From the NCBI GenBank assembly GCA_000934665.2, contig KZ537973.1:1-64000 (forward strand): DNA of 64,000 nt, read 5' to 3'. The notes under the pieces are model-generated. The model was given only the letters and a program-made list of their open reading frames with translations, did no database searches and was not told the DNA's origin. Made by a program: the position numbers and the translations under genes. The DNA is from Catajapyx aquilonaris (lineage: Eukaryota). Shown here one piece after another: positions 5,129 through 30,590 of the stretch (position 1 is its first letter; each line of letters opens with the position of its first letter).

Positions 5129-8100
5129 TTAGGTGTGGACCTTGTAATGTTTAACCAGGCGTGAATGAAGAGAAAACTGCTTCCCACATGTGTCACATGC
5201 AAACGATTTCTCTGCCTCATGCACTGCCTTCTTATGTGCCATCATGTTAGCATTCAGGCTGAACTTCCTTCCACACACGTCACACTCGTACGGCTTCTCC
5301 CCAGTGTGAGTCCTCATATGAACCTTAACCTGATTGTAGGTGCGAAACTTCCTCCCACATTCTGTACACTCTTGAGGCTTTTCTCCAGTGTGTGTCAACT
5401 GGTGCTCCATCAGGCTATGTTTAAAGATAAAACTCTTCCCACATTCTGCACACTTGTGTGGTTTTTCACTAGTATGTGTCAACAGGTGTATCTTCAGGCT
5501 ACCTTTGAAGGCAAACCTTTTTCCACAGGAGTTGCACATGTGTGGTTTCTCACCAGTATGCAATATCCTGTGTGCTTTCAATGATCCTTTTTGGCTGAAA
5601 ATCTTATCACACATTGCACATTTGTACGGTTCCTTTCCAGTGTGGATAAACATGTGATACTTCAGTGCCTCCTTGGTTTTGAATTGTTCACTACAAACGA
5701 TGCATTTATTAGACCTTCCACCGGTGTGGTTATGAATGTGATTGGTCAGTTGTACCTTGGTTTTGAAATGTTTTCCACAAGCTTTGCATTCATAGTCAGC
5801 AATGTGCCTTTGCTTGTGTGCATAGTAAGAACTGTAAAGATGAAATATCTTCCCACAAATGTTGCATTGATACGGTTTTCCTCCCACATGTTTCCTGCGA
5901 TGTGAAACCAAGCTATTGTGAAAACGATAAGCCTTGTCACAAATGTTACACTTAAAATTCTTCTCTCCAGTGTGGACAGCTTTATGGCGATTCAGTGCGC
6001 TTCTGGTTATAAATGCTTTTCCACATGTCTCACAAGTAACTTGCTTATCACCAGTGTGGGTTTGCCTGTGACGTTTAAGATATGATATTTGAGTATATGT
6101 CTTACCACATGTCTCACACATACATGCTTTTTCATTGGTGTGTGATTTCTCATGCATTCTTAGACTACCTTTGGTAGTGAATGACTTCCCACATGTATTA
6201 CATGTTCTGTCTTTCAAGTCCTGCTTATGATCACAAATGTTACACTTAAAATGCTTCTCTCCCGTGTGACCAACTTTATGGCGATTCAGTGGGCTTCTGG
6301 TTATAAATTCTTTTCCACATGTCTCACACGTAACTTGCTTATCACCAGTGTGGGTTTTCCTGTGACGTTTAAGACATGACATTTGAGTAAACCTCTTACC
6401 ACACGTCTCACATATGCAAGCTTTCTCTTTGGTGTGTAATTTCTCATGCAATCTTAGACCACCTTTGGTAGTGAATAACTTCCCACATGTATTACATATT
6501 CTGTCTTTCAAGCCCTGCTTATGATCACTATTACCGTGCTTGCTCAGATCATCACATACTGAGTTCTTGTCCCCTGTAGAAGGAGATAAGAGTGGATTGC
6601 TATCTGAGAGAGGAGGATGTGGATCTGATTTCAATTCTCCTGGTTGTTGATCAGCGGCTCTGTTGAATTCCTCCTCCGACAGGGTTGTCATTGCTGATGG
6701 TGCAGTCTTTCCCTTAGAAACTGGTTTCCTCTTGTGACTGCAAGATTCCAATAAAATGCTGATTAGACAAACTACAGTAGGATATGTTGAAACCTGCATG
6801 TGATTTACTAGTAAAACTAATTCTCCAGCCCAGAGTGCAGTATAGGGATATCAATACTGCATAAAGACAATAAGAAGAGATCAGGTGGGTAGCTTGTACA
6901 CTTCTGATTCTGAAAAAATCTTTTTGGCCATTTTTAAGCTTTAGATCTGGTGGTCCTCAACCGCAAATCTAAAAAGTATCAAGAATGGTACAATCTGAGA
7001 TCAGGCTAAAGGTCAATCAGGTGGCAGGCCATGAAATCTTACTACATTGATCTTCTTAGTTGCAGGTGTAAAACAAAACCTCCTTACTTCTGTGCTACGG
7101 TTAACCTTCTTCTCGCAATAAAATAATTTGTAGTTTTTAAAGCATGCACAATTTTCTCATAGCTTGGGCTGTTATGTAAGATTCTAATTACTTAATCATA
7201 TGTAATGCATTGCAGGTAGCACAGTAGCAGGTACAGACAGGAGTGACCATGTTGGTTAAGCCTCACTTGAAGTAATTTTACACCCATTTCACATCAATTT
7301 CCCTGCAAGTTTCATTCGTTACATAGCAAGAGTAATATTATTTGTTACGACACACGACATTTTTACCCACCTGGAGTTTCCTTTTACCACTTCTGAGGTT
7401 ACTCTTCGCTTCCTGACTTTCTTCGTGAAAGTGCTGCTGGGGTTTGTCACACCGCCTGGAACCTCCTGTGACAGTATCACTTCAGCTGATGCTGTTGCAG
7501 GTACCTCATTTGTCTTGCATGTCAAAGCTGCACTCGGCTGTGACTGAAAGCCTGAAATATAATGCCATCTGTAGAACATTAACTTTATTTCAATGCATTG
7601 CTATTGTTACTACTATTACAGGTACAGTGCTGGACAAATTAGCCGTCGCTGAATGTTTTTTTTCCGTCGGCGACAGCACTGCGTTACCTGGCAACCCTGT
7701 CCGGTTGGGCCAATTCAAACATCAGCCCATGGAGAGCGCTTCCATTGTTGCCACTGTTTACAAATCGAGTGAGTGACGCGGACGACCCAGCGACGGGTCT
7801 CTTCTGCCTGCGCACTCACTCACTCGATTTGTAAACAGTGGCAACAATGGAAGCGCTCTCCATGGGCTGATGTTTGAATTGGCCCACTGGACAGGGTTGC
7901 CAGGTAACGCCGCCGCCGCCGGAAAAAAACATTCAGTGACGGCTAATATGTCCAGCACTGTACTGTTAAAATTGTGAGTGGTAGGCCTACCATACATTTC
8001 TTACTCAGGAGCATGACAAGCTTTAACATTTATGAGATAATAAAATAAGTGATATTCCCCAAGGTTCACTTAGCCTGACAGTCACGTTTGGGAGACAAGT

Positions 8101-9814
8101 GGAAGTGCAGCCCCTTTTGTGAGCAGCATAAAAGTACACATACAGATGCACTAAACAGTAAAGCATGAAAGTGAGTGATATACTATTTCAAATGACTTTA
8201 AATTATCATAATATGTTAGGGTATGGACATTTTTGACCCACCCTGTACATTACATCACCAAAACCAAAATCAGAGTAATTTGATAGGGCCAAACAAAAAA
8301 TTTCAACCAAGTTATTTCCATTATGTACTTGCCTTTCACTGATAGGTTTCACTGAATATAATTGAGGAGAAACTGCCAAAAAACAGCACTCTTGACTTTG
8401 ACAGTTGAGATTCCCACGGACATTTATGCCCGAAAAACATAATTATGTTGTAACACAATATGCCTTACCATATTCCATGCTTTCCTTCAGACAGGGTACG
8501 GACACACAGTAGACATTTGAAAGGCCATCGGAACAGAAAATGTTTTGATATGAAATATTTCCAGTTTGCTCTTGTTGATTGACTCTCTTGACTTCCCCTA
8601 TAATGGCAAGCACTGCTGCTGGTGATGTCTTCTGCATGCAAGAGGTCTTGCAACTGCAAAAAAAAACAGTCAGTCACATTAACATATTTGAGTCACAAAT
8701 AACTTTGCCTCATGGAACAATAACATTGAACAGCTGTTATATTGAAACCTGTTGGTGGAACTGTCATAGTTCCTTAAATATTATCTGCTTGCACAGATTT
8801 CCTTCATATGCAAAAAAAATATATAAGATATTGGAAATTCTCAGCCAGGAGAAACATAATGAACAAGTTTCCGTGCATAAAGTGTTCATTTTGACAAGTT
8901 GCACTATGACATTTTTAAAATGGGCATCACATAATTTTATATTATGCAACAGGAGTGAAATGGAACCCTAGTTTTCCTTCAAAACGTGGCCTCTGAGTTA
9001 TGTATTCCCAGCAAGCAAAATTACATGGGAAACTTTTAGGTCAGACTTACACTCTTATGTTGCCAAGCAAAATGCAATCACCCACCTGAGATTCTGTTTC
9101 AAGATTTCCATTTCCTTTCTTTCATTTCTGACTGTCATTGGTGGGGTGCTGGAGACGTCTGGCAACACGTCTGCAGTAGGTTGTAAGGTTTCAGCCTCTA
9201 GAAAAGGAATTTCCAGTGATTTCCGTGGCTCAAGAGTCAGTGGCACAGCAACCTCTCGCTCTACAGTAAATTATTAACCATGCGGTACTGTCATGTTATG
9301 CAACCCAAAATGAAATCCTGAGGTTAAACAGCTTGTGTCCCACATGAAGATGCGTTGATTACATTTGCTAGTTAGAGACTGTAACGTTATGGCGTAGAGC
9401 TTGTACCTGCGCAATTGAGTGGCGGCAAGGGGTTCTTCTCGACCTGTGCTCTGCCAGCCCGCGGATCAGGTTCTGCAAGTAAATGCTGGAATGAGTGCCA
9501 CCAAGGCCATGTTCATGCGACGCCATACCTTCAAATCCAGTCAAGCGGAGCGTAGGCGATGCAGTTCTATTGAGCTTCGCTTCTTCATCGAAGAGACGTG
9601 GAGGAACGAAGTGTTCCTGGAGGAAGTGGGCCGAGCATATCTGTGCAGACTCCGGCCTGAGAACGGCCTTCATCCACAGGAAGAGCCGCTTCGGGTCCTC
9701 GGTTGGGAAAGGGAAGTACGTCGCAGCTGGCCTCTGTCCTGCTGCCAGCTGCCCAAATCGGCTGTGCGGACAGGTGGACACGCAGCATGTGGGTCCAGAC
9801 CAGGGAGGCAGCAT
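5129..9814 (-). CDS. THAP-domain plus 16 C2H2 zinc-finger protein (gene A), about 811 aa, 5 coding exons
   Basis: Exons 9814-9529 (THAP: CCVSTC..FPFP..W..CSAHF..ASPTL), 9260-9086, 8653-8469, 7551-7371 and 6737-5129. All introns are GT-AG with phases 1,2,1,2; total 2436 nt. The last exon has 16 fingers, many with TGEKP-type linkers. Confidence 0.85.
7625..7960. mobile_element. Tc1/mariner-type foldback MITE in an intron of gene A
   Basis: TIRs CAGTGCTGGACAAATTAGCCGTC / GACGGCTAATATGTCCAGCACTG flanked by TA; almost the whole element is self-complementary. Confidence 0.9.
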
Positions 9815-9902
9815 CTTCCAGGCCGCAGTATTAAACACGAGATGGAATACCAAACGGCGGGTAATGCAGAATAACGAGCCTCAAAACATTCCAACGGCTT
9901 CC

Positions 9903-9916
9903 GACGCCATGTTGGT
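9903..9916 (-). promoter_or_regulatory. YY1-like CAACATGGCG motif near the putative TSS of gene A
   Basis: CCAACATGGCGTC lies about 90 nt upstream of the ATG. The same (C)AA(C/G)ATGGCGTC motif precedes genes B, C, D and MED20. Confidence 0.45.
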
Positions 9917-12589
9917 GGCCGCATTCGCATCGCTGCCAACGGATCTGCTCGAAGCAGTGGATCGAAGGGACTTACACGATGGCCGACAATAAGTTAGGGG
10001 CATTTTAAAAAATATCTATGGTTCCAACATTTTCGCGGCGGGCTATGGCCTTGCAATCGACATAGGTCTAATATGATCAATTAATTGTAATTAAGACATA
10101 CCGTAACCAAAACCGAGTTATCTCGTCTATTTGCTGTGGAAAAGGATATAATCACAAATGAACGGAAATGTGGCTATACCTCTGCTGTATATATTTTCAA
10201 AATAATGTCCTCTTATTAGTTCCTGGATTTTATTGTAAATGTTATACGCATTGAGCAACACAAATAGCTTCGAATTTACTACGACATTTACGTATTTACG
10301 AAAAATTTTCATTTGGGATGTTAGGCGTTAGCTATAGTAAATTGGCCTTCCTCTTCATGTGCGTATAGTTGGTGCTGATGAAGCAAGATTGTCCTTGAAA
10401 GCGTGAGATTGCATTTCCAGATACTTCGATTTCGTAAACATGCATAATTGCCTCGTCGCTACCTATGGGTACTAATTGCTTGCCCGTTTGGATGTTATCT
10501 TTTCAAGACGTGTGGCAATGCGTGCGGCAAACGCTCGATAGGTTATGGCTCCAACTTCCCAGTTATTCAATGTCAGCTCAGGTGTTTCAACGCGACCTTC
10601 ATCAGCATTTACATGGAAACCTTTCGAATAATTCCACTTTTTATTCGCTTCTATTGATTTATAGTTACTGCTGGAAATTGAACATGACGATTAAAAAGTA
10701 TAGTCTGTCACGATAACTCAAAAAACGGTCAGCTTCGCAGCTCTTTTTTTAAAAACAAATTATAGTTCATTCCAGCTATACGGACTCCACTGGAATTACC
10801 AGCTGTATGATTAATTATTCAGGATCATGTTGCACTAAGTCGTGCTTTATGCTGCTGCAATAAGCAACAAAATTGTGATTAATATTTTAAAAGGTTAGTG
10901 AAACACACTGCCTAACTAGGATTTCAAGACAAGCCTAGTCATCAATGGTTATTCAGGAGTGCAATTATTATTAGGATGCCATTTTGTTGTGCACTGCATT
11001 TTACAATACAATACAATACTGTGTACAATCAAATATATTGCAACCCTTCTTCCTCTGCTTCATCCTGACTCTTAGTGGCCACCCAAGGGCCTCTTCTGCT
11101 CGACGGGTAGCGGGCAAGTCAGGATGAAATAACACAGTGGCTCAAAAATTCTGTCGGGATGTGGAGGCTACTATTCTCTTTCAATGGAGCTTGCATCATA
11201 CTGGCTCATTAGCTTGTTTGGGAATTCATTTATCTTCACTGGATAATCGTCAGGAAAAAAAGTACTCCGCTTATTGCACGCCACAGAAAAAAAGTCATTT
11301 TTTCAGACTCTCGGGCTTAATCTTCTGGCGAGACTCGAAAACGAACCTTATGGTTGACTTCTGAGATCTCGACGGGAAAAAAGGGCTTTTATGCCATTTG
11401 AGATCGAGGACGAAGCGAGACGAGCAACAATGAGCAGCGTTTTCTGACAAAACAATATTATTGGCTGCTTCAGTTCACCTTTGGTAAAATGGTACCTAGA
11501 GTACAATATGCTGTAAGTAGGGGAACCTAAAGTGAGTGTGTGTGTGTGGAAGAAGAGGAATGCATCAACACTGTGAACTTCCCAACGCACTATTTATTCA
11601 AATAATAATATTCATTTACAAGGAAACGTGGGAGGAGAGTCGAACCAGTGTCGAAATGCTTATTACATCGTACATTTTCGATTCGTACGTCGTTCGTGGC
11701 GTGTGAATCGCACATCGCTACAAAAAAAAAAAAAAAAATGTGCCTCAGATAAGCTAGTGGAAACCGAATGCAGCAGGAAATGTGCTGTCAGTGTTCTTCA
11801 TAGTGATTCATATTGAAAAATGAATTATTATATGCGTTGACACTATCATGGCGATAGCAGTACAAGGTGCTATAATTATATCCAGGGCAGAACATCTGTC
11901 TTAGAATACATCAATATTGAAGGAGAAAAAATAGTGTCAACGTGATTTAAGGTAAAGCTGAAATTGCCCTTTCCGACAAACAGTAGCTTATAAAAGGTGT
12001 TTCATAATTCACCCGACAAACTTCTAGGGTGACCTCCTGAGTGCCAGTGGTTCACATTATGCAAAGTTACATGCCGTTGTGTTTTCCGACACTACAACTA
12101 ACCCTGGCTCGGTTTTACTAGCCGACATCGGGAAAACCAAACGAGGGACAGGAGCTCAAAAATATTGTGGGGGTATCTCTTGAATTCGTGATTAGTTTAT
12201 GTCAACAAACCCCCGATTTTCAATAGCTACATACCGAGGTCACAAGGAGGTTGACAAGCCCAAATTGGGAAACTCTTCGTGGAGCGCATCAAATTATTGC
12301 GCACACCTTAATTCTGTGGATGGTACCACCAATTGCCAAGCTTGTGCTCTAACCACTGAGCTACCAGGAGCTGACATCTGTGGATGGTAATATGCCCAAA
12401 AAGTCCTGAAATTGGCATGAAAAAAGCCAGAATAGGCAAAACAGTTCCCAAAACCACGAAATAGGCGAGGCACTATAAAACCTACATTTTCCACATCCTG
12501 CACTTATGAAACGGATAGATCTCTTCACAAAACGATCCCGACTGTTAAGGAACGAAACAGGCATTTGCCTCAAACTCCGGATTCTAGTT

Positions 12590-12740
12590 ATAACTGACTC
12601 CCTTTCAGTGCCCCTAGAGGAAAATATAGGGAGAGAAGGGTGCGGGGTTTGAGGTCAGGGGATCGTGCAGTCCATAGTCCTCGCGAGATAATGAGGTCTG
12701 AAGTGAGGTCCGCAGCAAAGGCACATGAACTTTGTGTGCG
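12590..12740 (-). mobile_element. Tc1/mariner transposase fragment
   Basis: The minus frame encodes LIISRGLWTARSPDLKP, matching the WPARSPDLNP catalytic-region motif; the rest is degraded. Confidence 0.55.
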
Positions 12741-13019
12741 CTGTGGTGCCTTCTTGCTTGGAACCAGGCCTATGCAATATCTCTCTCCTTCAGTTGAGCT
12801 GTGAATGTTTCCAGAATGCATGCTGGGCTGTGACTGGTATATACCTATAGTATAGCCCACTACAACGTTTCATCATACCCTCTTCAGTGCACAGTAACTT
12901 TGCGGAAACCATGTGTAGTAGTGGGTCTCCGGACGGCTGCAGTCCATATTGATGGAAAAGCCTCACTTGGTGCTGAAAGACTGGCGACATAAAACAGGTC
13001 AGTAATGCGTGTCGCCCTG

Positions 13020-15131
13020 TTATTCAGTACTACTAAGCGAAATGCATTCATCGCCATTTGCGAGGAGAGTTGGTGTTGGACTGGTACGAGGTTCAGGGAC
13101 AGCAGGTGTCGCTTCAGTGATGGGGAAGGAATGCCGTTTTGGTGAGTGCCATTTGGACAACATCTCCATTAAGCAGCACGCGACAGTTACAATCCATCCA
13201 GCAACAATGAGGACGAAAGGACCGTACAGCTTCCTCACTGAAAGGGGCCTGCTCTCCTCCTCTTCCTGGCTCAGCATCCCTTCCTCAGCCTCTTCTTCAT
13301 CTTCCTCACTCTTGGACCACTGGCGCCGCTGTACCTCCTTCAGGGAATTGCGGAACACACGGTACAGTTCGTTGTGCTGCAGATAGTCCGACAGCCCGCT
13401 CTCCATTATACAGACACCAATTCTGCTCACTTCTGGCCAGACTGGGATGTCCTTGAGGGCTGATCCACCAGTGAAAATGTCTAACGCGGGTTCTGTCTTG
13501 TCCCTCACGCGCAGCTTGCCATTGCTGTCCACAACTCCAGATTTTGACGTGTCCATATCTAAACTAAATCCAATGCAACTGAAGTAGTCTTCTTCCGCTG
13601 CTTTTTCAACGCATTCAGTGTAGCTGCTCATCATCTTCACTTTCTCCGCAATCTCGTGGTAGTAAGTGTGGCCTTCCACTTTCTTGGATAAGAGGTTGTA
13701 GAGCAAAGCCGATATCAAATGGGCTCCGACTTCAAAATGCGAGTTGCTGAGTTCCTCCAGCGTGGTTGGAAGATTCTCCTTCTCAGGCACTGCCACAAAA
13801 GCAAAAACCATTTCTTGATATCCACACGAAAGAATCATGGCCACGAAAAACCAAAACAGGACAAAGATTCTCGCTGCATGAGCCCTTGGAAATTCCTCGT
13901 TGGGCATCTGCTCAACCAAGGCACCTGCGCAGGAATGAAATGCGATGTCTCCAAAGTCTTTTCCTGGAACAGTGTACACGGCCGCTTCTATCTTGAGCAT
14001 TTTCCAGGTGACTCCTATTGAAAATGCAGTTCCTAGAGCGATCAACACCCAAACCTCCGGGTGGTAAGGCCGGAAGACAGTCTTCCACGTCCACAGGGGT
14101 CTGGGGAATCCGGTGACGAATTCAAAGCGGAAGTATCCGGCGGGGTACATGTATTTAACATGAGACATATCGTTTCCTTGGTAGAAAGAGGCAAAGCAGA
14201 AGTCTGCTTGTCCAGTCACCAGGTCTCTGATTGGTGATAACCAAGTTCCGTTGCTCAGACGAGACCCTTCCAGCATCTCTGGGACTATCGTCATTTCGTA
14301 AGTACTCCAGGCGAAATTCATTTTGTCGCTGTATAACAGGAGATATGCTTCGACAAAGTCCAGAGACAAAAGGCTATCCTTATCTCGCTTCCTCTTGATT
14401 TCATCCCCATCCATATTTCTTATAAAAACACCTTTTACACGCCTACCATGCAAGTTTTTCGCCACATGTGGAAACAAGTCCCCTACCCCCAGTACCGGAT
14501 AGTGTCCCAGAGTGACCTTGGAGTGCTTTCCTTCGTCGCAGCAGAAGCAAATGGTGGCCAGCTCCAGTGACCCTCCATCAGGAGAAGGCTTGATGGCCAC
14601 CTTCCACCTCATCCCCAGCATGCTGTTGGTCCTGTCCTCCTTTGGTGAAATGGCCTTGTCCGGGTCTTCCCTGGTCCATATGACGACGTGGTCATCGTCT
14701 GACCTGACCTTGACCCTGGTGGAGACGAAGATGCTCATCCGGTTGACCAGTCCGGATGTCCTGGTGGTGAGCAGCTGCACCAGACAAGGACCGGTCCACT
14801 CCTTGGAGCTAATGTCCCAATAATCTCGATGCGATGCGTCTTCAGGGACAGAGAAGGACTCGGGAGGGGACAGAGACAGTGTCGGGCGATATTGTTCGTT
14901 CGCTCTAGAGAGGATCTCTTGAAACGTCCTCGGAACATGCACAATATCGTGGGCCAGCAGAAGAGTGCACTCGGGTAACTTCTCAGACAGAATGGCAAGC
15001 ACCATGTTGGAAATGAGTTCGTCGGAAGTCCTACTTCCATCATCCGAGTGTATGAAACGTGCAGTCGCCATGGCATGCACGTTAAGCACCACCACATAGA
15101 GTAACTTGATGTTGACACTCCCAACCACCAT
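13020..15131 (-). CDS. Intronless divergent ionotropic receptor (IR paralog 1), about 703 aa
   Basis: Hydrophobic N-terminus; S1 (NGTWLSPIRDLVTGQADF); PRP..W..VFRPY then M1; pore GALVEQ; M2 (RIFVLFWFFVAMILSCGYQEM); S2 (PTTLEEL); RPLS then last TM. First ATG at 15131. Confidence 0.9.
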   Translation of the reverse strand: MVVGSVNIKLLYVVVLNVHAMATARFIHSDDGSRTSDELISNMVLAILSEKLPECTLLLAHDIVHVPRTFQEILSRANEQYRPTLSLSPPESFSVPEDASHRDYWDISSKEWTGPCLVQLLTTRTSGLVNRMSIFVSTRVKVRSDDDHVVIWTREDPDKAISPKEDRTNSMLGMRWKVAIKPSPDGGSLELATICFCCDEGKHSKVTLGHYPVLGVGDLFPHVAKNLHGRRVKGVFIRNMDGDEIKRKRDKDSLLSLDFVEAYLLLYSDKMNFAWSTYEMTIVPEMLEGSRLSNGTWLSPIRDLVTGQADFCFASFYQGNDMSHVKYMYPAGYFRFEFVTGFPRPLWTWKTVFRPYHPEVWVLIALGTAFSIGVTWKMLKIEAAVYTVPGKDFGDIAFHSCAGALVEQMPNEEFPRAHAARIFVLFWFFVAMILSCGYQEMVFAFVAVPEKENLPTTLEELSNSHFEVGAHLISALLYNLLSKKVEGHTYYHEIAEKVKMMSSYTECVEKAAEEDYFSCIGFSLDMDTSKSGVVDSNGKLRVRDKTEPALDIFTGGSALKDIPVWPEVSRIGVCIMESGLSDYLQHNELYRVFRNSLKEVQRRQWSKSEEDEEEAEEGMLSQEEEESRPLSVRKLYGPFVLIVAGWIVTVACCLMEMLSKWHSPKRHSFPITEATPAVPEPRTSPTPTLLANGDECISLSSTE

Positions 15132-16906
15132 TGTTGATTCCAGTAATATCCTGCTGCTGTAGTCCAGATTCAATTTAATGACCCGCACTTATGTCCAGTC
15201 GCTCTTCGGGATGTCTTATGTGCCCACTCGGTTAACTTTTAACTACCTGCTTCTCAAAACCAACGTATGTAAATTTCGGTGCTACATCCACCAAATAAAC
15301 CGAAGACAGTTAAATTATTGCTTCAGAGGCAATAGAGGACATTTCTGCTCAACTGCAGCGCGACCGTATAGTGCTTCGAAATGTGGAGCCAGTGTTTGAG
15401 AATCCAGCTGGATATGCTATTACACCACACGTCAATGTGTTGAATTCTAAATGATCTGCAGGATTAATATCGCCCAGATCGTCAGATATCTCTGAACGAT
15501 GGCGAAACAAGCGTAATATCTACTCAGTCGTTTGTGTGGGAGGCCATTTATATAGGTTAAGATATACATTGCTACAAGAGGAAGGTGAGGGAATGGCACC
15601 ATTCGACATGTTTTATGAAGTGTCACAAGCTGTTACAGTGTGTGTATGTGGAATGAGAATGATGCATCAGCACGTCAGTTATGTGAGCTGGCTGACTGAC
15701 AACACTATTTATTCCTACCATAATTCATTTACAGTACAAGAAAACTTATTGGGATAAGAGTGTGTGATATGCTATAGAGTCGAACCATTGCATTGTCGAA
15801 ATATTCCTATTCGATATTATTTTACAAAAAAAACGTATAGCTCACACAGGCTGTGAGCTGGAGGAAACCGAATCCAGCAGGAAATGTCTTGTCAGTGTCC
15901 TTTATATGAGTGCTTCATTTTGAAAAAATGATAATTATATTGACACTATTTCACTATCATGGCGATATCCGTGCAAGATGCTATACTGTATATAATTATC
16001 CAGGGCAGAACACCTGTATCAGAATACATCGGTTGAAGGAGGAAAAGTGTATCATTTGAGATTTTGAATGTTTTGAGGTAAAACTATATCGCTTTCCACC
16101 AAACATACCTTACACAGCGTGTTTCATAAATCACCAGACAAAAGTCTATAGGGCGAACTCCTGAGTGCTAGTGCTGGTTTCTGTTATGCAAAGGTGCCGT
16201 TTGTGCATACACATTCTCCCTAGTAGTTTGGCTAGTGATTTATGAAACACCTTCATATTGCATTTGTTACGGTATAGGCATATTAACTTCGAAAAAATAT
16301 ACGTACTGAATATTTGCAGGTTTCATGAAATAAATTATTTAGTAGGACCTATTGCTATACTACTGTAACACTAAAATATTACCACTATAGTATAATAATT
16401 CTGGAACGAAGGTGTATGCCTTCTTATCTTTTACACAGTAACGAACATTACTAACCTTGTAACTTTAATAAGGGCGCCGGATAACTAGGTTTCACCTCCT
16501 CACCTCGTCAAATCGGGGGAGAACTTTCGAACGTAGAATAACAGTCGGTTACCTATCCAGGGTGCCAGGGAACCGGTTCGGGCTAAATAATTTAAAAAGA
16601 GCGTGGGCAGCAGGGAATCAACTGTTCCATTTCGGAAGTACTCCCTCCGATTTGACGAGGTGAGGTGGGGGAATGCCATGGAAATAAATTCACCATGTCT
16701 TATTGAAGAAACGCTTCACATGCCATCGCCTCAAAAGTAGCCTCATATCCTACGATTATTGTGTCACTGATGTGATTCAATCAGGAGGCAAAGAGTAGGT
16801 GGTCTCAGGATGGCTGGCGTCCCGCTATACTAGTAAATATGGAAAAGTCCCACTTGGTGTTGATCGAAAGTCTGATGACATAAAAAGGCTCATGCAAGTC
16901 TCTCTG

Positions 16907-19027: not shown

Positions 19028-20379
19028 TGTTGATTCCAGTAATATCCTGCTGCTATAGTCCAGATAAAATAATGATCTGCACTTATGTCCAGTCACTATT
19101 TGGGGTGGCTTGTATGCACTTCGGTGAACTTGTAATGACTTGCCGCTCGAAACAAACGCATGTAAATTACAGTGCTACACCATGAAGCATGGAATGAGTT
19201 CAAATATTGCCTTATTAAGCCTCATTCGTGCTCAGGCTGAAGAGTGACTGTTGTGCTTCGAAATTCCACAGCCAGTGTTTGACAATCCAGCTAGCTGTTC
19301 TATTATATTCCACACGTCAGTGTGTTGAATTCTGAATGAACGAATGGATTATTGTCCACATATGGCTGGACGGTGCCAAGCAAGTGTAATATCTACACGC
19401 AGCAATCAGTGGCCAATTCCTGGTTCTAATGCATTATTACCAAGAGGGAAGTGAAGCAAATGGCAAAAGACAAAATATCTTAAATGTTACAAACGAAGCA
19501 TCCCATCATATGGACATTAACCTGTTGTTGCATATCATGGGATGGACCTGGATGGACCACATTCGTATTTTTTATCTGCCAAGTGTTACTGGCCTTATTT
19601 AAATCGGGAAACACTCTGATAGATGGAGGAAAATTAATAAATACCATCTGCAAAAGCAGCTAAAAAACCGGACTTTATAATCACTAATCAAAGGGATTAT
19701 CTGGACTGTGGCTCCCTCAGCTATAGCTTCAACAGTCCTCTTATTTGTGAAGATCTTGCTGATAGGAAAATCCTCTTGTGAATTATGTATTGCGCAACCC
19801 AATTAGTTTTGGTCCCTATCCCAGCCTTGAATGTTTAATATAATCGATTTAGATAACGATGGACTGGCATCATTAGTAGCTGAGGAGCTCTCCATTTCTG
19901 CTCAGTTGTATATATTACATACACGAGTGGTAATTTGGTGGCACAAGTTCAACTATTGAAACATGTCCCTGGCTCCTGTTCAGTAACATACTCTGGGGTT
20001 GGGCACACTTGGGTTGATATCAATTATACTTATAGGCTTATCTGTAATTTATTTAAGTATATGGCACACCAGAACAATTATTTAGAGTGCATCAGTTTAC
20101 TATGCCTCACTGACACGTGATCCTTGCAAATCCCATATTTAAAAATGGCACAAACTTTTGCTTGTGCCCATATTCTTGGCACATAATTTACATTTTTGAG
20201 AAACCCATCCTGCCAACATTAGCATATAATTATGTTATCTGGTATGTGATGCTGGCAGAAGATTCAGCATCTGGTGAAACATCCAATAGGATTAGAGAGA
20301 TTCTGACCCTGAATCTCTTCATACCAAGGGAATTTATCATAGTCCAAAAATTTCCTTAAAATGCTGTTCTCAATTGTTA

Positions 20380-21030: not shown

Positions 21031-21096
21031 CACCCATAAAGTAGAAACTCATTAAGGTCACATTGCACCTGCTGCCATGAGATAACCCACCTGGAG

Positions 21097-24000
21097 TTAT
21101 ACTTTCAGTTTTTCTATCACTCTTTTGTCCTCCCTGACTCTCCTCATGTAAGTTCTTGTGGGTTTCAGCAGCACGGGTGCAGCCTCTTGTACATCAGCCG
21201 ATTGATCTGCAGGCAGTTTATTTGGCTCAGAAGTTGATGGAAGACTCTTCACCACTGGAGATTCTGAAATTAAAATGGTGCAAATGGGTCTGTCAGATTA
21301 GATGCGATGCATATGGCCTGCACTGTATACATTAGCAACGCTGTGCTTGCCCTGAAGAAAGTGAACCAGTGAAAGTAGATGGAGAGCATGTCAAAGGGAT
21401 AATGCCTGCCCACTGACTGGCTTGTATTTGTCGCAGATGGTGAGTTTTCATTGCAAACACTGCATGCAATGATGGCTGTGACAGGTCCTTAGGCCTGTTT
21501 GTCTTGAAGGTCACAAACAACTACAGGCTGCATTTCAAAGTGACAAATCATATTATGCAGTAGATAAATCATAGCTTTCAGAATAGCTTTCCTTTATTGG
21601 TCATTAAAATTTCTTGAACCGGACACAGATAGTTATTTCTTATGGTAGCAAGCCTTGACTGGGTATTTGCCATACCCCTGGGAAAACACCAGGAGCCCTG
21701 CCATAGCCACTGACAGTCTCTTGCAAGGTCCACCTCATCTTCATGCAACAGACCATATTTATAACTAAATTCCTCCATTTTTTATGGTTATTCCTAGATT
21801 TACACCAACCATGTGTATCAATAGACCAAATTTTGTCAGTCTGAATAATTATATACCTGACTGAACTGGATCACAGGAAGTAGGACTATTTGGCTGAAGA
21901 TACTGAGTTGAAATGTATTCCAGGATTGGCAGTGGCTGGTTATTTTCTTTCAAAGCAGGAGTAACTACTTCAGTCTCCTTTTCTGCAATAAACATTACAC
22001 AAGTTATTATTAGAAATAACTACATTAGTTACATAAAAATGTGCACATTAGAGGGACAGACTAAAACTACACCATTCACCATGATTCGTGAAATTCCTGA
22101 CCCCTGCATAAGTAAAATCCCAAATTCACGAAGACAAGAAAATGCCTTACTTCTCTTTCCTTCCCCTCTTGGGGGCAATTCTCCTTCCTCTTGCAAACTC
22201 TCATCTCTTCTGAAGAAGTTCCCTGGCATTGCAGGCCTTACATATTGCTTAATCTGACAACCCTTGCGTAAGTGTTTCACCAACTTGTGTTCATCTCTAA
22301 ATCCCTTTTTGCATTTGCTACATCTGAATTCACGGTGCATCACATCCATATGAACTGATAAGTTTGTCTTGGTTGAAAAAAACATTCCACAATAACTGCA
22401 TGTGTGTAGCCTCACTTTTACCCTGATCACCTGATCAACACCAGAATCATTATCATTCTCCGGAATGCTCACACCATCACTATCAAAGGAAGTGTCATCT
22501 GTCACGAGGCTTAGTAGCATGGAATCATAGCTATTGACGCCAGCAGGGAGGGAAGGAAGTGGATGGTCCAACATTTCTTGTTTTTTTTGTTGGGCTGCTT
22601 CATTGATCTTTTCCAAACGCAAGGCAGGCATAGTTGTTGGTGATGCCTCCTCTTCACCAATGAGTTTCTTCTTAAGACTGCAAGAAATCACACATTGAAA
22701 TGTCTTCTCTTCCTTTCAAAATGAACTGGTAAGCAAAGGATTACATGATAAAACTCAGCTAAAAAAAAATTTCATCACATATCCTATGCATACCCAAATG
22801 AAATTCCCGTCACTTTGCATGAGTCTGGATTTGGCTTGCGGACTTACCTTGTGGCAGATCTGGTTGAGTCTGTCGGCTGGTCTGGAGCCCTAGTTGACAT
22901 CCGCAGCTCAGTTGATTCAGTTGCAGTAATTTCATTTGGCTCAGAGTTTGTTTTCTGTCTCTTCTTTCCTTGCAATTCTGAAATTGATAACATTTATAAT
23001 AAGTAATCACTATGCACAATTCTCTAGGTATGACTGCAATCTCAGTCATAGATAAATGCACAAACAATATAAATGCAGTACATTTTCATTTGGCCACCAT
23101 TTATGGCAGATAAGATCTCATCAGAACAATTTCCACTATATCATGTGTTAGATCACTTCAACGTCTAATGCCATTAGAGTCATTACCATCATTTCTCATA
23201 TAATCATCATCATCAGAGTAGGTGTCAACTTTTACTGGTGTTAAAAGCATGGAGTTGATATTTTCTATGCTGGCAGGCAAGGACAGATCTGCATCCATCT
23301 CCATTTCTTCTTTTAACTGTTCAGCTGCTCTGTTGACCTCCTCCAAAGACAAGGTAGGCATTGTTGTCAATGAGGTGTTTTCCCCATTGTGTCTCTTCTT
23401 ATAGCTGTATGAAATAATCACAATCATTGCACTAGTAAATGTTACTCTCTACTGCATGCACAGAGTACTAAAAGCTGAAATCAAGCCAACAATTGGTCAA
23501 TTCATGCAATATCATCACCTTTTAGACGTAATATTTTCTTGCAAGTTTCCCAACAATTGATTTTGTTGTCCACCTGCTTCTGCAAAAGTACTGTCCACTG
23601 TCATAGGTGTTAAAGGTTTAGAGTCGAAATTTTCAACGTTGACATGTAGGAAAGGTGATGCATCCAACTCCATTTCCTCATGTTTGATTTCTCCCAAAGA
23701 CAAGGCAGGCATTGTTGTAGGTGAGGTATCTTTTTCCATAGTGTGCCTCTTCTTACAACTATAAGAAATAATCCCAATTGTAAGCATTAGTAAAAGTTAC
23801 TCACTATTGATCATAGGCAGAGCATTGACAGCAAAAGTGCAGCAGTGGTCAATCCATACAATGTCCTCACCTTATAGACCTGAAATTTCTCTTTAAGTGC
23901 TCCAACATTTCATTCTCCATCCCAACTGCTTCTGTGCAAGTACTGGTAGGATTTGATGACATGTTTTCAGCAACTTGTGATAGGTGCCTCTCAACTGATG

Positions 24001-26141
24001 CATTTTGTGGAGTCCCAAACGGTTCAGAAACAAATAGCTTGATGTCTTCTTGTGTAACATCTGCAATGATATTAATTGAAGAGTCGTAGATGGAAGTACA
24101 CTAGCTAGGCCTTTTTCAGACGGTCGAAATTTGAATTTTTCTACTACACATATTGACTTTCTTTTCAGAGTGCAAATTATTCCATTACCAACCTGCAAGA
24201 CTGCCAGGAATACTTGGTTGAACTGGGTCATAGAAAATGAGCCTGGTGTCCTCATTCAGATGGGTTAGGCCTTTGGATGTGGCTGCTGGCGGTCCATTTG
24301 ATTCAGAGAGAGACAAAATGTCTTCTACCAAACATTCTGTAATGATAGCATCATCAGTAAGGGTTTGACTGGGTAGCAGCTTTAGAAGAGTACAAATTTG
24401 TATTACGACCGGCACATAACATTCACAATAGGTGCATGGGCTGATAATGATCTGCATATACCTGCAAATGTTGGTAAGTTGAGAAGAGGCAAGGCATCTT
24501 CCTTGAGCTGTGCCTTGTCAGCCAGTGGATCATCTTCAAGCGGATCAGCAGGAATCACATGATCCTCCAGGAAGTGGCTTGAACAGATCTGGGCATATCC
24601 TGGCCTGAGGATGGCCTTCATCCACAGAAAGAGCTGCTTCGGGTCGGTTGGAAAAGAAAAGTAGTCTACTTGTGACTTGTGGCCATGATCCCGCTGTCCA
24701 AAGTGGCTGTTTGGACATGTGGACACGCAGCAGGTTTGGCCAACTGCGTGACACTTAACCCGTGTTGAGTATTCCTCTTCTGGCCACTGCACTAGCTGCC
24801 AAACACATTGATTATTATGGACAAGGATTAGCCAGGATGTCACTATTGACCAATATACATTACTGTATTAGCAAGTACCTGTGGTCTGAATTCTGAAGAA
24901 GTTCCAGCAGAAGATGTAGGATCTGGTGAGCCTTCTCCTATAATTAAAACTTTATCGAATTCTGGATGATTGGTCACACTCGGAACTGCAGGGTCGTTGT
25001 TTGTTGCTTCAACTCTCAACTTGAGAGATGGAGCAGCACCAGGTTTCAATATCCTCAAGGCAGGTAAGCCAAGCATCTCACTCTGCAAGTCTCTTTCATA
25101 GTCGTCAGATTGAAAATGCTCCGAACACATCAGTGCAGAATTGAGGTTCACTTTCTCAGGCTTGTCACATTTCATCACCCACTGTTTGCACACAATTGGA
25201 TCTTTTGGAAACCGGTGATAAAATATTTCAGTTCCAGACGTGTTGGCACCATTATTTTCACAACCAGCCACTGCACAAGACAAAGACATAGGCTCCCTGG
25301 AACAGAACTAAACAAGCACAATCACAACCAGTTACTGGCAATTCTTATTCAAGAGTAGCAATTAAGGGTGTTCTTATCGAGCAGTTCTAATGACCGTACA
25401 TTTCATATTTACATTGCCCTTTTTTTATAATTGAGAAAACAATTCACAACCATGTGATAGGTATACATTTGTGTACCGGTTTTAATAACCAGCCTAAACG
25501 GAGAGGGGTGTTTACAATAAATTAATGAATGAGTGTCTAGTAACACAGTACTGAACAGGCTACTATTAGCATAAAATACCTGTGTTTGTCCAGCTGGATA
25601 AATTCTCCCAGGTGAATCATACGCATTCGGAACAACTGCTAAGTACACAACTTGCTCCTCGTCGGCAGTGTTTGTCGTTCTGTGAACAACACAGTTGTGG
25701 GTTGGTGCACCTACAGGCAACTTCTGTGATGGAACCACATCACATTTCAATGTCCTTTTGCATGGTGTCCCTTGCAACTCATGCATTACCAGTACCATCA
25801 CATCATAGTCTTCCGGAAGAAAATGCTCCGAACAAATCCGGGAATACTTATTAACTTTGGCAGTCGTGTTGCACGCTGCCACCCACTGGTTGAACATAAT
25901 CGGATCGCTTGGAAATTTGTGATAAGTGATGTCGGTTCCAACTCTCCTGAAGGAAGCATTTTTGCAAGTGCTCACTGCGCACACTGCTGAAGACGGCATC
26001 GTCTTGTTGATCCACAACTATGTACGCACACTCTGCTTATTACACCTCATGACTCCAGAAACAACCCTCACCTGTAATGTAAACCAAATTAGAATCTCGC
26101 TATTTGATTTTACAAGTTAACAAATGCCCAACTCACCTCAT
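21097..26141 (-). CDS. Multi-THAP modular protein (gene B): alternative THAP1/THAP2 exons, atypical THAP3, repeated low-complexity modules and a two-finger stub
   Basis: Leader exon ATGAG|GT (26141-26137). Then either THAP1 (ATG 25999, donor 25580) or THAP2 (25296-24879); THAP3 24795-24462; then 24336-24193, 24060-23871, 23758-23519, 23404-23187, 22977-22848, 22677-22151 and 21263-21097 (TAA). All GT-AG with consistent phases. Confidence 0.7.
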
Positions 26142-26159
26142 TTAAAAGCCAAAAGACAA

Positions 26160-26320
26160 TAAACAGACGCCATCTTGCAAATATCGGGTGCGTTCGAGTC
26201 GATGTCAAACTGTTCATAATGTTATCGATATTTTTAAAACGATTTTAAACTCATCAGTATCGATATTTTTGAAGACGTATGTGAAAGCAGCGATCCGAAT
26301 GCTGCCAAAGATGGCGTCGA
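26160..26320. promoter_or_regulatory. Candidate bidirectional promoter between genes B and D with two DRE elements
   Basis: TATCGATA at 26223-26230 and 26258-26265, flanked by outward-facing AAGATGGCGTC motifs (minus at about 26166-26176, plus at about 26308-26318). Confidence 0.6.
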
Positions 26321-26525
26321 TTGTCTTATCTCGTGCTTATCGTCCTGTTCAGGGCGTTTGGAGCACTTTGTGACCCGCTCGTGTCGTCCCCGGGAACCCC
26401 AGCAGATCACAGAGTGAGTAGAGCAAGTGCTGTTGCCAACATTTGTGCCACGATCACAGTTTGGGGGGGTAATGGCCGAAATTATTTACTTTTGGTAGTA
26501 GACCACAAGTGCCTGGAGCTTCAAG

Positions 26526-29500
26526 ATGCCTGCCCCGACTGGACCGACATGCTGCGTGGCCATGTGCCCTAACAGCCACTTCGGACCGCATGGAGGTGGT
26601 GGACAGCAGAGGTCAGCTGTGACCTACTTCACCTTCCCGTCAGACCCGATCATGAGGCTGCACTGGATGCAGGCCATTCTTGAGCCCAGTTTTGCTCATG
26701 TCTGCTCACGTCACTTTCTGGACGCATACCTAGTACCGCCTGACCCGTTGGATACAGACCTGTCTGTTCGAGGTACACTGTGGACGCTCAGGAAAGATGC
26801 TCTTCCTTTGCTCAACCTTCCGACATCACCCCCAGGTATGCCTGAAGACTCAGGTTGAGCAAAGCTTGGCAATTATAACAATTTCGTTCCATTGCATTCT
26901 TGAATTAGTTGTTTCATCTGTAATATGTGGGAGCACCCTACAACCCTACAGCCCAGTGTTCGAAATTGGGATACATAGGCAGGTCGCCAGTGGCACCTGA
27001 TATGTATAGCATGGTCGCCAAAACTGTATGTCTAGTCGCCATTATTTTATTTTATTATATATCATTACTGTACCATAGCACGAAATACGAAATCGCCGAT
27101 AGTTATAGTGTACAGCGTTAATATGCTTCACAATTCAGAAGCATATTTTAGTATTTTACCAACTGCTTCTTTTTAGACACGGAACTGCAATAATAGCCTA
27201 CACAAATCACATCAATGATGGATTCACTTTGTTCCTCGGTGTCGATTTTATGCTGGCAGACTCCTCTTCTTCCTCGTCAGCTGGTTTGCTGACTTTGGCA
27301 ATGCTACTGCCCACAAAAAAATCGGAAATCTTTCGTTTTGCCATTTTCCTCGGGAGAACACTTCACGAGTCCGATCCGCCTCTCTTGCCGACTGCGACTC
27401 GAAATCAGTCGAAAGACTATAACTAAGACTATTTCGAAACTTCTCTCTCCCCCGTCCCCCCTCCCCCTCAACCCTCAAGGCCTCAATGCACTCAGGACTT
27501 ATACCGGTCATAGAACTTGGATCTTCTTCACCACACCTTCCCTGTTCCCTCCACCCTCCTCCTAATTAGGTCCATCCTGCCCCGCTTTCCCCTCCTCTAC
27601 ATCTGGCTGTGACCCCGCGCAGCCGAGTCCTTCCTGCTATCCTGCAACCTTGTTTACCCCAACTTGGAACTTGAACTTGACCCCCGGAGTGAGGACCCCA
27701 ATAAATACCAGGCGCGCTTCATGATAATAAGCCACCAACAGAATCAGCACTGCAGGAACGAAATTGAAAATACAAGGCAGAAATACAGTATTGGGAGGGA
27801 AAGCTAGTCGCCAAAGTGGCGACTAGCCATCTTTATTCAGTCGCCAATGGATAACCTAAAGTCGCGAAATGCAACTGGCGACCGGTTAATTTCGAACCCT
27901 GCTACAGCCTACAACAAAATAGTGACGAACAACCAATGAAAACATTAGGACCAAATTGCTGCTACAAAAGCAGAACGGATGAAAGCTGAAAATTTAAATA
28001 CCACTTAATGGGTCACTAACATATATTACATAGCGTCTGCACTCCAATTCATCATAACTAAGAAAATCACCACAACAAATGCAACATGATAAATGTTTTA
28101 CAAATTCAATCATTGGAAAAAGAAAAAGAAAATTCTATAAATTGGAATGGATTGCAGGTGGAATGGTATTGTTGTATATACCTGAAATTAAACCTGTTGT
28201 CTTTAAACACTATAACTAATGATGGGATTAATTTCAGCCCAGCCAGCTGAGGATATTACGTCAGCTTTCGAGTTTAGGGAGCACTCACTGTCAGAGGACT
28301 CATCCAGTACAGTTCCATCTCAACGTAATGAAAGAAACAAGTTTGTTTCATGTAATACAGCCCAATCAGGTATGACTGATGTGCAGCCAGAGGACAGAAA
28401 GCTGTTGATGTCTCGGCCACAAGGATTAACTGAAAACCAAAAATCACAAGCGGCATCAGACATGTCGCCTCCCACAACTAGTACTCCCATGAAGGAAATC
28501 GGGAAGCAAAAAGAGAAATTTAAAGGAAACTACTGGTAGGGATCTATTTTATTACATAATGTTGTGGTGGCCTTTCAGCTACTCTTTAATTATTGATTTC
28601 ATTGTAATTTTGTCTGTTGAGGTTAAAAATGCCGTATTACCTCTCATGAAGTGGCATACCTGTGTAGTCGAGGTCAACCAGTTTATAGAAATGCATTATC
28701 TGGTGACTATACCGGCGGGGTGTAAGGCGAGGTTTTCACATAAGTTACATTATTCTTTCCTAACTTGACATTTGCCTGAAAATAAAAATTCACGTAAAGG
28801 CACATTTTCCAAATAGGGTACCCATACCATATATTGTTTTCAATTGCAGTGTCTGGCAATAATCTCGGGGAATATTTACAACTTTGTGCAAGATTATATT
28901 TTGATAGTTCGTAATAATATTTATGATCACCATAATTTCTTTCAGTCATAAGAAGGCCCCAGTTATCAATGAGGCCTCATCATCAGAGTATCCTACCTTA
29001 TCACTGGAGGAAGTCAACAATGCAGCTCAAGGAGGAGGAGAAGAAATGGGATCAGCTCTAAGATTGCTCCTCTCTGACGAAAATCCACAAGCGTTGCACT
29101 CGCAACAATGCAGCAGTGACCAGTTGACCTTTCCCAAGAAAGAGGCTGATTCCCACAGTGACAATGTGTGCGGGTACAGTAGCAATGATGACCCAGGTGC
29201 TGATTGGATGATCGAGTCAGAAATAAGTCTTGTAATGTGTGATAGCTGTGGGACAGAATTTGCAAGTATGGAAAACCTGTCAGCTCATGTATCCCTCGTG
29301 CATAGTGGACCATTTGTATGTGAACACTGCGGGAAGGTGTTTGCAACTGAGCAAACATTAAATGCGCATGTGCACAGTGCTTGTCCCCTGCGGAAGCATT
29401 ACAACTGTGACACATGCGGGAAGACATTCACTGCCAAAACAAGCATAGAAGCACACCAAAGGCTGCACACAGGGGAAAAGCCATACATGTGTGATGCATG

Positions 29501-30317
29501 CGGATATGCATTTGTTACTCGCACACAATTAAAAACCCATCAAAGACACCACACTGGAGAGAGGCCATTTGTATGTGAAACATGCGGGAAATCATTCGGA
29601 TGCAAGGGCACGCTCAAGATTCATAACCGTGTCCATACCGGAGAGAAGAATTACAAGTGTGAGATTTGCTACAAGTCTTATCGCAACAGTGGAGCTTTGG
29701 CCTTGCATCGCAAAAAACACACTGGAGAAAACCCATACAAGTGTGACTTTTGCAGCAAGACATTTGCTTCAAACAGTGCTTACCATTCACACCGCAAAAC
29801 TCACACTGAAGAAAGCCCCTTTAAATGCACTTCTTGTGGGAAATCATTCAGGTCCAAAGACAGACTGAAGCAACACATCCACACCCACACTGGAGATCTG
29901 CCCTATGATTGCGAAGGGTGCGGGAAGAAGTACAGCAACAGGGCGGCACTGGCAGCCCACAAAAAGGTGCACACAGAAGAGACGACGCCACACAAATGCG
30001 ACACATGTGGGAAGAGCTTTTCCACAGGACAATCCCTGAGGATACATCAGCGCACTCACACCGGAGAAAAGCCGTGCAAGTGCCCCGAATGTGGGAGAAT
30101 GTTCCGCACTCTTGCCCACGTAAGCGCTCACATGACCACCCACACCGGGGAACAGCCGCACAAGTGTGACACATGCGGGAAGAGGTTCAGCAAGAAGGTA
30201 AATTTGCGTACTCACGAGAGAGTGCACACAGGTGAGAAACCGTTCGAGTGCGACACGTGCGGTAAGCAATTTACTACAAAGTCAAATCTTGGGAAGCATA
30301 AAAAGCTTCACATGTAG
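26526..30317 (+). CDS. THAP-domain plus 13 zinc-finger protein (gene D), about 659 aa, 3 coding exons
   Basis: Exons 26526-26835 (atypical THAP: CCVAMC..FP..W..CSRHF..ALP), 28238-28535 and 28946-30317; phases 1,2; total 1980 nt. Twelve C2H2 fingers plus one C2HC. AATAAA at about 30423. Confidence 0.85.
26954..27901. mobile_element. Non-autonomous hAT-type DNA transposon in intron 1 of gene D
   Basis: TIRs CAGTGTTCGAAATT / AATTTCGAACCCTG; perfect 8-bp TSD CTACAGCC (26946-26953 and 27902-27909); subterminal GTCGCCA repeats at both ends. Confidence 0.9.
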
Positions 30318-30479
30318 GGATCTGTCAAATGTATCCATATTTATTTTATTTTATTGATTTATGTACGCTATGGAGTGACTTTAATGTGCCCTACTGCAAC
30401 AATTTGGTATTTGTTACCAAAAAATAAAGATTTTGTATGACACACCATTGTCTAATTATTATTAGAATGCTATTGAAAT

Positions 30480-30590
30480 ATCGATGCGGAGTTCACAATT
30501 ATCGATTCGGCAAGTGCAAATATCGATATTATGAACAGTTCGACGGATGTCAACCCGAATGCACCCGAGAAGATATGCAAGATGGCGTCT
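30480..30590 (+). promoter_or_regulatory. Promoter of gene C, an inverted copy of the gene B promoter
   Basis: TATCGATA at 30521-30528 and CAAGATGGCGTC at about 30578; reverse-complement similarity to 26165-26230. Confidence 0.55.

Follow-up and report, generated by a model that had tools for sequence, protein, structure and literature searches.

A short-loop THAP subtype in a small cluster of predicted THAP and C2H2 zinc finger genes of Catajapyx aquilonaris

Introduction

More than once, a family of poly-zinc-finger proteins has acquired an N-terminal domain specific to its lineage, KRAB in tetrapods and ZAD in insects, and it is the choice of this N-terminal domain that decides the function of the family. 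This report deals with a cluster of genes from Catajapyx aquilonaris (GenBank assembly GCA_000934665.2, contig KZ537973.1, positions 1 to 64,000) in which C2H2 fingers are combined with an atypical THAP domain. The 64 kb of eukaryotic DNA analysed, with a G+C content of 39-50%, are referred to as the window, and all coordinates are given on it.

The closest described systems are found among the ZAD and THAP proteins. ZADs form homodimers, according to the available part of PMC7913770, and the Drosophila proteins CG6689 and CG10431 appear in the accessible text of PMC9810180 as THAP-ZAD-ZNF proteins. Human THAP proteins are described as pairing via a coiled coil and not via the THAP domain (PMC6402169, as excerpted), and in THAP1 the loop L3 is critical to DNA contacts, specific and non-specific alike, in the portion of PMC2879526 consulted. 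Lineage-specific expansions in which THAP is found with diverse partner domains have been described in Hydra, Capitella, oyster, and echinoderms in the available sections of PMC10027918 and PMC13228809. No named THAP-ZNF or THAP-C2H2 family was found in the literature searched, which did not extend to supplements, where such pairs may be listed; the word "THAP" occurs 0 times in the main text of Wells et al. 2023, in the form in which that text was available (PMC10547256).

The Finger-array Genes A and D

Two genes in the window, A and D, carry long finger arrays. The reading that we favor, held with about even confidence, is that they belong to a small, locally duplicating family of real, spliced, transcription-factor-like genes, in which a derived THAP domain most likely has an accessory role. 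The proteins would consist of an N-terminal THAP domain, disordered linkers, a module of 60 residues, and then the C2H2 fingers, 16 in A, 13 in D, and two in the shorter gene B.

Gene A lies on the reverse strand. Its first coding exon (9529-9814), identified by Pfam and a check of the frame, encodes the atypical THAP domain from an ATG at 9814 and ends in a phase-1 donor. A predicted linker exon (7371-7551), entered in phase 1, left in phase 2, and flanked by GT..AG sites, keeps the frame open from the THAP domain to the array. The terminal exon (5129-6737; Pfam, frame) holds the 60-residue module, a spacer, the 16 fingers, and the stop codon, and the array includes an internal duplication of 98 residues that spans three fingers. 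Gene D, on the forward strand, has the same layout. A 5' untranslated exon ending at 26413 is joined to the THAP exon (26499-26835), the acceptor of which, at 26499, is seen in a contig; the coding part (26526-26835) starts with the ATG at 26526 and ends in the phase-1 donor GTATGC. The 3' end of the linker exon (28238-28535) is fixed by a contig joint and its 5' acceptor is predicted from the frame and from homology to genes B and E, described below. The terminal exon (28946-30317; Pfam) carries the module, a spacer, 13 fingers, and a stop, and is covered by contig pieces at 28945-29588 and 29726-30179. In both genes the THAP exon thus opens with ATG and ends one base into a codon before GT, and the minimal three-exon models are open over 691 (A) and 659 amino acids (D) with GT..AG at every intron. 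The finger counts, the confinement of each array to one terminal exon, and the phase-1 donor had all been proposed in a first-pass annotation, made from the letters of the DNA, and are borne out here.

Splicing was followed in contigs of a public sequencing run, X1, which were compared over 21800-40000, a stretch outside which gene A falls. The run, the kind of which is unrecorded and which is not registered as RNA, contains a fraction of 0.47 of the sequence words of the gene D locus. Its contigs show 14 joints over this stretch, 11 of them "skips", and, after the stated cut shift has been applied, all 11 skips have GT..AG on the strand of the host gene. Because all of the skips show such ends, the run is taken as complementary-DNA-like, and we infer that its joints reflect splicing. 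Together, the skips support the majority of the introns of B, D, and E. Two joints fall in gene D, from the 5' untranslated exon to the THAP exon (26413>26499) and from the linker to the array (28535>28946, read as 28534>28945 with a cut of +1). No X1 joint was seen for 26835>28238 in gene D or for 24193>24060 and 22151>21263 in gene B, which is evidence neither way. The intron between the THAP and linker exons of D, together with the introns of A, is predicted from the frame, from the splice sites, and by homology with what the contigs show in B and E. The earlier proposal that THAP exons are spliced to the arrays is therefore observed in part, in the linker-to-array joint of D and the THAP-to-linker joints of B and E, while the THAP-to-linker step of D rests on frame and homology.

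Two repeats were met in the introns of these genes. A near-perfect palindrome at 7700-7960, in an intron of gene A, resembles a small inserted inverted-repeat element. Over a repeat in the first intron of gene D (26836-28237), the contigs of X1 rise to a depth of 6-10 and differ at many letters, as would be expected if other copies of the repeat were expressed.

The Atypical THAP Domain

A Pfam scan of 12 open reading frames (ORFs) of the window matched THAP (PF05485; cut-off 23.9 bits) in seven of them. Three of these copies, here called canonical, score 54.8-58.7 bits. The remaining four are the atypical domains, at 9529-9814, 24462-24795, 26526-26835, and 31600-31933 as first annotated, with scores of 35.4 (A), 45.3 (B), 40.4 (D), and 43.0 bits (E). 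When these four were used as a profile against all 1634 ORFs of at least 25 residues in the window, the atypical THAPs scored 158-188 bits and the canonical ones 20-39 bits; no further atypical copy was present among these ORFs, the sole extra match being a remnant at 30665-30976. Judged by sequence, the four atypical THAPs are a subtype of their own. They share the signature TCCV..CP.S.FG and WM.A.L.P, followed by a spacer of 12 residues between the Trp and the next Cys.

This spacer is the most distinctive property of the subtype. It measures 12 in all four atypical copies, against 17, 17, and 16 in the canonical THAPs of the window, in line with the difference originally noticed. Among 455 THAP domains taken from the 150 nearest database proteins, a spacer of 12 occurs once and one of 14 or fewer in ten, with a mode of 17 and a range of 12-30. 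The shortened stretch, which runs from the Trp helix to the second strand, corresponds to loop L3, and is 5 residues below the mode.

In other respects the domain is a complete one. The zinc signature C-x4-C ... C-x2-H is present in all four copies, and in an alignment of 46 sequences C9, C14, and C60 are invariant and H63 nearly so. P38, W47, and F64 are likewise invariant, and P94 nearly so; a Pro, a Trp, and a Phe in the core and a Pro in the C-terminal closing motif are signature residues of the THAP family. An AlphaFold model of the gene D domain has a pLDDT (predicted local distance difference test) of 79.2, and its best four matches in Foldseek are all THAP domains, namely THAP2, the P-element THAP on DNA, and THAP1 both free and on DNA (probability 0.96-1.00). 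In VIA the model aligns with human THAP2 at Z 8.0 (83 residues, root mean square deviation 3.8), and with both THAP1 and the P-element THAP at Z 6.4. On its sequence and predicted fold, the domain is a true THAP with the β-α-β fold and is neither a ZAD nor a KRAB domain, and among the 12 submitted ORFs Pfam returned neither zf-AD, at E<=0.01, nor the KRAB box (PF01352). The possibility that the exons are remnants of a P-element-type transposon was also considered and is rejected; Pfam shows no transposase domain beside the THAP exons, and splicing makes these exons part of finger genes.

Genes B and E and the THAP-less Units

Gene B, on the reverse strand and head to head with gene D, is modeled with nine exons from an ATG at 25289; the model is open over 786 amino acids and its introns are GT..AG. 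A canonical THAP exon (24879-25296; 58.1 bits) is joined to the atypical THAP exon (24462-24795) at 24879>24795; the latter is entered in phase 0 and left in phase 1, and both of its limits are joints. Two linker exons follow (24193-24336 and 23871-24060), with outer limits set by the joints 24462>24336 and 23871>23758 and a predicted intron between them. Next come two free-standing module exons (23519-23758 and 23187-23404), the first of which has an end that agrees with a 13-letter loose contig end at 23406. A small exon (22848-22977) lies between the joints 22977>23187 and 22677>22848, which carry the transcript on to the exon with the module and two fingers (22151-22677; zf-C2H2 in two stretches by Pfam). 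The predicted last exon (21097-21263), with a basic tail and the stop, is based on homology to 35300-35473 and 38889-39076 and on the open model. Upstream of B, on the same strand, a further canonical THAP ORF (25409-25999; 54.8 bits) has its own ATG and an in-frame stop, and may belong to the same gene or to a separate one.

Gene E (30665-34751, forward strand) is an inverted partial duplicate of B, with inverted repeats of 84-91%. It consists of the tail of a first THAP (30665-30976), a canonical THAP without ATG (31049-31480), the atypical THAP at 31600-31933, three modules (32791, 33136, and 34229), and two fingers. The first THAP is missing its front part, the second its ATG, and the fingers their first Cys pair, yet spliced contigs persist, with joints at 31933>32196 (atypical THAP to linker; 31927>32190 before a cut of +6), 33343>33774, and 34751>35300. 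Downstream, as direct repeats on the forward strand over 36906-39864, lie two units of module plus two fingers, without a THAP exon of their own (~36906-37522 and ~39260-39864); a joint at 36447>36906 and a contig piece at 39260-39572 belong to these.

The window thus contains two array genes, two short-finger genes, one of them damaged, and two THAP-less units. From the inverted B/E pair, the THAP-less units, and the damaged copy, the family would appear both to grow and to decay by local duplication. Two of the original proposals fit A and D and fail in the other pair. The atypical THAP forms the first coding exon in A and D, while in B and E it is internal, entered in phase 0 from the canonical THAP exon; and a fusion of THAP to a true array is found in A and D, while B and E have two fingers each.

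The 60-residue Module and the 5' Motifs

Every finger-bearing exon opens with a module of about 60 residues, always in the same phase. Ten copies are present, at 6557-6736, 22497-22676, 23224-23403, and 23578-23757 on the reverse strand and at 28947-29126, 32791-32970, 33136-33315, 34229-34408, 36907-37086, and 39261-39440 on the forward strand. Their consensus is xKKxPxGExETSPTTMPALSLEEVNxAAQQ...PSLPAxVENxDSxPLTPV, with a mean column identity of 54%, and Pfam names nothing over it. In B and E the module is also found as separate exons that are entered and left in phase 2, which explains how it could be multiplied. A structural model predicts a single helix, at residues 20-29 (LEEVNNAAQ), with a pLDDT of about 76. 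The module, which had been overlooked in the earlier annotation, ranks equally with the THAP domain as a candidate effector, and this short helix within a disordered stretch would be the likeliest docking site for a cofactor.

A second shared feature lies upstream of the coding exons. Alignment reveals a conserved 5' block common to A (9902-9936, reverse strand) and D (26287-26319, forward strand, within the 5' untranslated exon), and the 21-nt form of this block is found only at these two genes within the window, with 0 expected by chance. Its core, AAGATGGCGTC, stands on the sense strand before A, B, D, and E and at a single further position, giving 5 matches against 0.24 expected; with the following base, as AAGATGGCGTC(G/T), it occurs at 9902-9913(-), 26165-26176(-), 26308-26319(+), 30579-30590(+), and 60619-60630(+). 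In gene D the motif sits within the transcribed 5' exon. It may resemble a YY1/Pho-type site.

Conservation and Selection

The different parts of the proteins have been conserved to different extents. Between A, D, and B, identity amounts to 44-53% in the THAP domain, 20% in the linker, and 25% in the region before the fingers (38% over its first 40 residues). Between the arrays of A and D the finger framework is 62% identical, compared with 21% at the four DNA-contact positions; entropy peaks at the finger helix positions, and the fingers are connected by TGEKP-type linkers. The earlier statement that the THAP domain is better conserved than the linkers or finger helices accordingly holds.

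Between B and E the ratio of nonsynonymous to synonymous substitution (dN/dS) is 0.35 for the atypical THAP exon and 0.60 for the canonical one, and at these values the THAP is considered to be under constraint. For the three-finger duplication within the array of A the ratio is 0.48, in a comparison of paralogous rather than orthologous sequences. No sign of positive selection was found in the few comparable pairs (dN/dS 0.35-0.60).

The Role of the Atypical THAP

If the favored reading is correct, the finger arrays would perform the main part of DNA reading. The derived THAP would keep its zinc site and fold, its DNA-contact loop being short and its positive charge low, and would act as an accessory domain in self-pairing or partner binding, in the manner of ZAD, BTB, or SCAN rather than through THAP1-type site recognition. 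Loop length has been dealt with above. Net charge, taken over the stretch between the first zinc ligand and the closing Pro, is -6 in E, -5 in B, -1 in D, and +2 in A, in comparison to a mean of +4.7 (standard deviation 3.8) over 171 THAP domains. A homodimer prediction for the gene D domain scores 0.58, against 0.02 for the best of three controls, none of which was a canonical THAP, with contact agreement of at least 93% between runs and a partner pLDDT of at least 71. In a microbial calibration, 21 of 30 solved pairs and none of 23 single chains attained the mark used for dimers. Among eukaryotic proteins, 17 of 29 pairs (7 of 16 from animals) and none of 30 single chains attained it, as did only 1 of the 7 without an older solved relative. 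The short loop, the low charge, and the dimer prediction lean toward an accessory or pairing role, as far as sequence and model can indicate, and none is decisive. The original suggestion of the modified THAP as a dimerization module thus gains some support from these same three observations.

A number of observations weigh against this assignment. The homodimer run included zinc, unlike the calibration, and did not use the author's alignment. The dimer model has more than 200 contacts, with zinc ligands paired across the chains (for instance 60-9, 14-60, and 63-11), and because of this pairing it may be an artefact of overlay or swapping. All of the zinc ligands and core residues are retained, as they are in DNA-binding THAPs. 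In charge, B and E alone are extreme; A (26th percentile) and D (11th percentile) fall inside the normal range. The THAP of A and D stands at the extreme N-terminus of the protein, and in THAP1 the N-terminal tail makes base contacts, as stated in the available part of PMC2879526. The fold of the module is predicted with low confidence (mean pLDDT 62.6), and the splicing itself is deduced from run X1, which is not registered as RNA.

One further residue was tried as an indicator of DNA binding. At the position equivalent to Lys24 of THAP1 a basic residue is absent from all four copies. Since it is also missing from 65% of 465 comparison domains, with Lys or Arg in just 35%, the position is uninformative.

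A strong rival to the accessory role is that the atypical THAP still binds DNA sequence-specifically, with changed specificity, so that THAP and array together would read a bipartite site, just as each type of domain reads DNA in other proteins. We assign this explanation an appreciable probability, clearly below that of the accessory role. It is consistent with the established function of THAP as a DNA-binding module (PMC2879526, in the part available), with the retained C2CH ligands, the P, W, F, P core and the predicted THAP fold, with the purifying selection at a dN/dS of 0.35, and with the N-terminal position and free tail of the domain in A and D; loop lengths, moreover, vary widely within the family (spacers 12-30). 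Against it stand the loop that contacts DNA in THAP1, which is 5 residues below the mode in all four copies, the low or negative charge, and the passed homodimer prediction, which comes with its swapped-looking interface and the lack of a canonical THAP among the controls; with 13-16 fingers, there would also be little need for an extra reader. If the THAP does bind DNA, these would be ordinary two-headed transcription factors of an already known domain combination.

Taken to its full extent, the reading of the first-pass annotation would be a THAP-ZNF family that is large, fast-evolving, and lineage-specific, the members of which silence transposable elements through a shared THAP effector; it would be a third system of the KRAB/ZAD kind. 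The layout of an effector exon and a single array exon is that of KRAB-ZNF genes, the fingers have TGEKP-type linkers and variable contacts on a conserved framework (21% against 62%), and local birth and death are visible in the inverted duplicate, the THAP-less units, the damaged copy, and the internal finger duplication. This full version is nonetheless unlikely, as the 64 kb contain just two array genes, no close relative turned up among 1.84 billion representatives (0 at E<=1e-30) or in metagenome contigs, so that no expansion is visible in the collections searched, and there is no positive selection at dN/dS values of 0.35-0.60; nothing links the genes to transposable elements, and silencing is pure conjecture. 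Similarly doubtful is a version in which the THAP has been remodeled into a self-pairing or effector head, with its loop cut to 12, charge lost, and pairing gained, and has joined the 60-residue cofactor module in founding an independent, KRAB/ZAD-like, birth-and-death family for genome surveillance, of which the window samples one cluster. At the other extreme, the THAP and finger exons could belong to separate transcripts, or the loci could be transcribed pseudogenes. Gene E is damaged, with its first THAP cut, its canonical THAP without ATG, and its first finger without cysteines, and the ORF at 25409-25999, closed by a stop, could be a separate gene. We consider this explanation highly improbable, as A, D, and B have long open frames over 3 to 9 exons with matching phases, the contigs of B connect THAP exons to linkers and linkers to the finger exon, and four loci share one pattern of phases.

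Relatives in Public Collections

The profile of the four atypical THAPs was compared with 1.84 billion representative proteins and gave 217 matches at E<=0.001, of which 15 reach E<=1e-10 and none E<=1e-30. The top matches are proteins with many THAP repeats, from sources that include Rhipicephalus ticks, Cimex, Daktulosphaira, Glossina, Musca, Drosophila obscura, and metagenome contigs. Two fly proteins, from Glossina brevipalpis and Musca vetustissima (P0003 and P0007; 4344 and 4384 residues), contain 29-30 THAPs in a row, and another protein (P0016; 3708 residues) has 23 THAP domains. A separate search of metagenome contigs with the same profile gave 156 pattern matches, none of which was confirmed.

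Domain architecture was scanned in 148 of the best 150 profile matches, two very long proteins being left out. THAP occurs together with C2H2 fingers in 5 of these 148 nearest THAP proteins, from a tick, a moth, a fish, and, in two cases, a tardigrade, and the THAP plus C2H2 pair is therefore already present in public proteomes. The moth and fish proteins are XP_028041769.1 of Bombyx ("oocyte zinc finger protein XlCOF6-like") and XP_042352913.1 of Plectropomus, and those of the tardigrade Paramacrobiotus, XP_055334240.1 and XP_055334243.1, have a PR domain in addition. In Paramacrobiotus metropolitanus two neighboring genes combine 3-6 THAPs, a PR domain of the PRDM type, and C2H2 fingers.

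The tick protein, KAL1487356.1 of Rhipicephalus appendiculatus (P0004; "hypothetical protein", E 3e-21), is one of the nearest relatives of the atypical THAP profile in the database. It has four THAPs and then a few C2H2 fingers, and in this it resembles gene B, with its two or three THAPs and two fingers. It differs in being only 28-31% identical per domain and in its spacer, which by our own count is 14 rather than 12; the 60-residue module was not seen on reading its sequence. By every sequence measure applied, it is not an orthologue.

A word-index search with the THAP exon of D found no relative among longer proteins at E<=0.001, and one with its array exon returned generic finger proteins, mostly from vertebrates, with identities of 50% or less; none of the 120 matches listed for the array carries a THAP. 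From these outcomes, the species and its close kin seem to be absent from the word-index collection.

Neighboring Genes

Interleaved with the THAP-finger genes are five long, mostly intronless ORFs, at 13020-15188(-), 16907-19174(-), 41762-43987(+), 44547-46656(+), and 48856-51036(-), which appear receptor-like and include four close paralogues. Their nearest Atlas clusters are arthropod ionotropic receptors (0.98), and Pfam Lig_chan reaches 30.4 and 29.7 bits, just below its cut-off of 30.8; a word-index protein search with one such ORF gave no relative. The sole Rfam match in the window is a tRNA, a tRNA-Ser with anticodon CGA at 54469-54551(+), which lies between ORFs whose translations resemble C-type lectins (53005-56451; putative). 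A putative urocanase-like gene, also read from its translation, follows the lectin-like ORFs at 57308-59187.

Comparison with Known Systems

The analogy to KRAB-ZNF and ZAD-ZNF families with which the annotation of this locus began can be kept for the conserved N-terminal exon, the variable linkers, the single array exon, and the local duplicates; the domain pair itself is not unique. A family in the sense of KRAB or ZAD would call for many copies, and the window has two array genes. What is new is a derived, short-loop THAP subtype combined with a private 60-residue module ahead of C2H2 fingers, in a small birth-and-death cluster. If the THAP does serve as a pairing or effector head, this would represent a new use of a transposase-derived domain and a further independent instance of the design.

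Each of the known systems shares only some of these properties. The THAP plus C2H2 proteins of moth, fish, tardigrade, and tick are scattered, carry other extra domains, and have THAP loops of ordinary length; the literature searched does not treat any of them as a family. Human THAP1-type proteins belong to the same domain family, with the same predicted fold; the loop L3 is 5 residues shorter in the proteins described here, and, to our knowledge, the THAP1-type proteins carry no C2H2 arrays. The KRAB-ZNF genes are similar in their conserved N-terminal exon, in the placing of all fingers in one terminal exon, in their TGEKP-type linkers and variable contacts, and in their clustered duplicates; Pfam found no KRAB in the 12 ORFs scanned here. 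Finally, the ZAD-ZNF genes have in common with this cluster an N-terminal zinc-binding domain on its own exon or exons, a C2H2 array placed C-terminally behind a variable linker, and duplication in place; the difference is that the domain here is a C2CH THAP and not a C4 ZAD, and that its pairing is a prediction.

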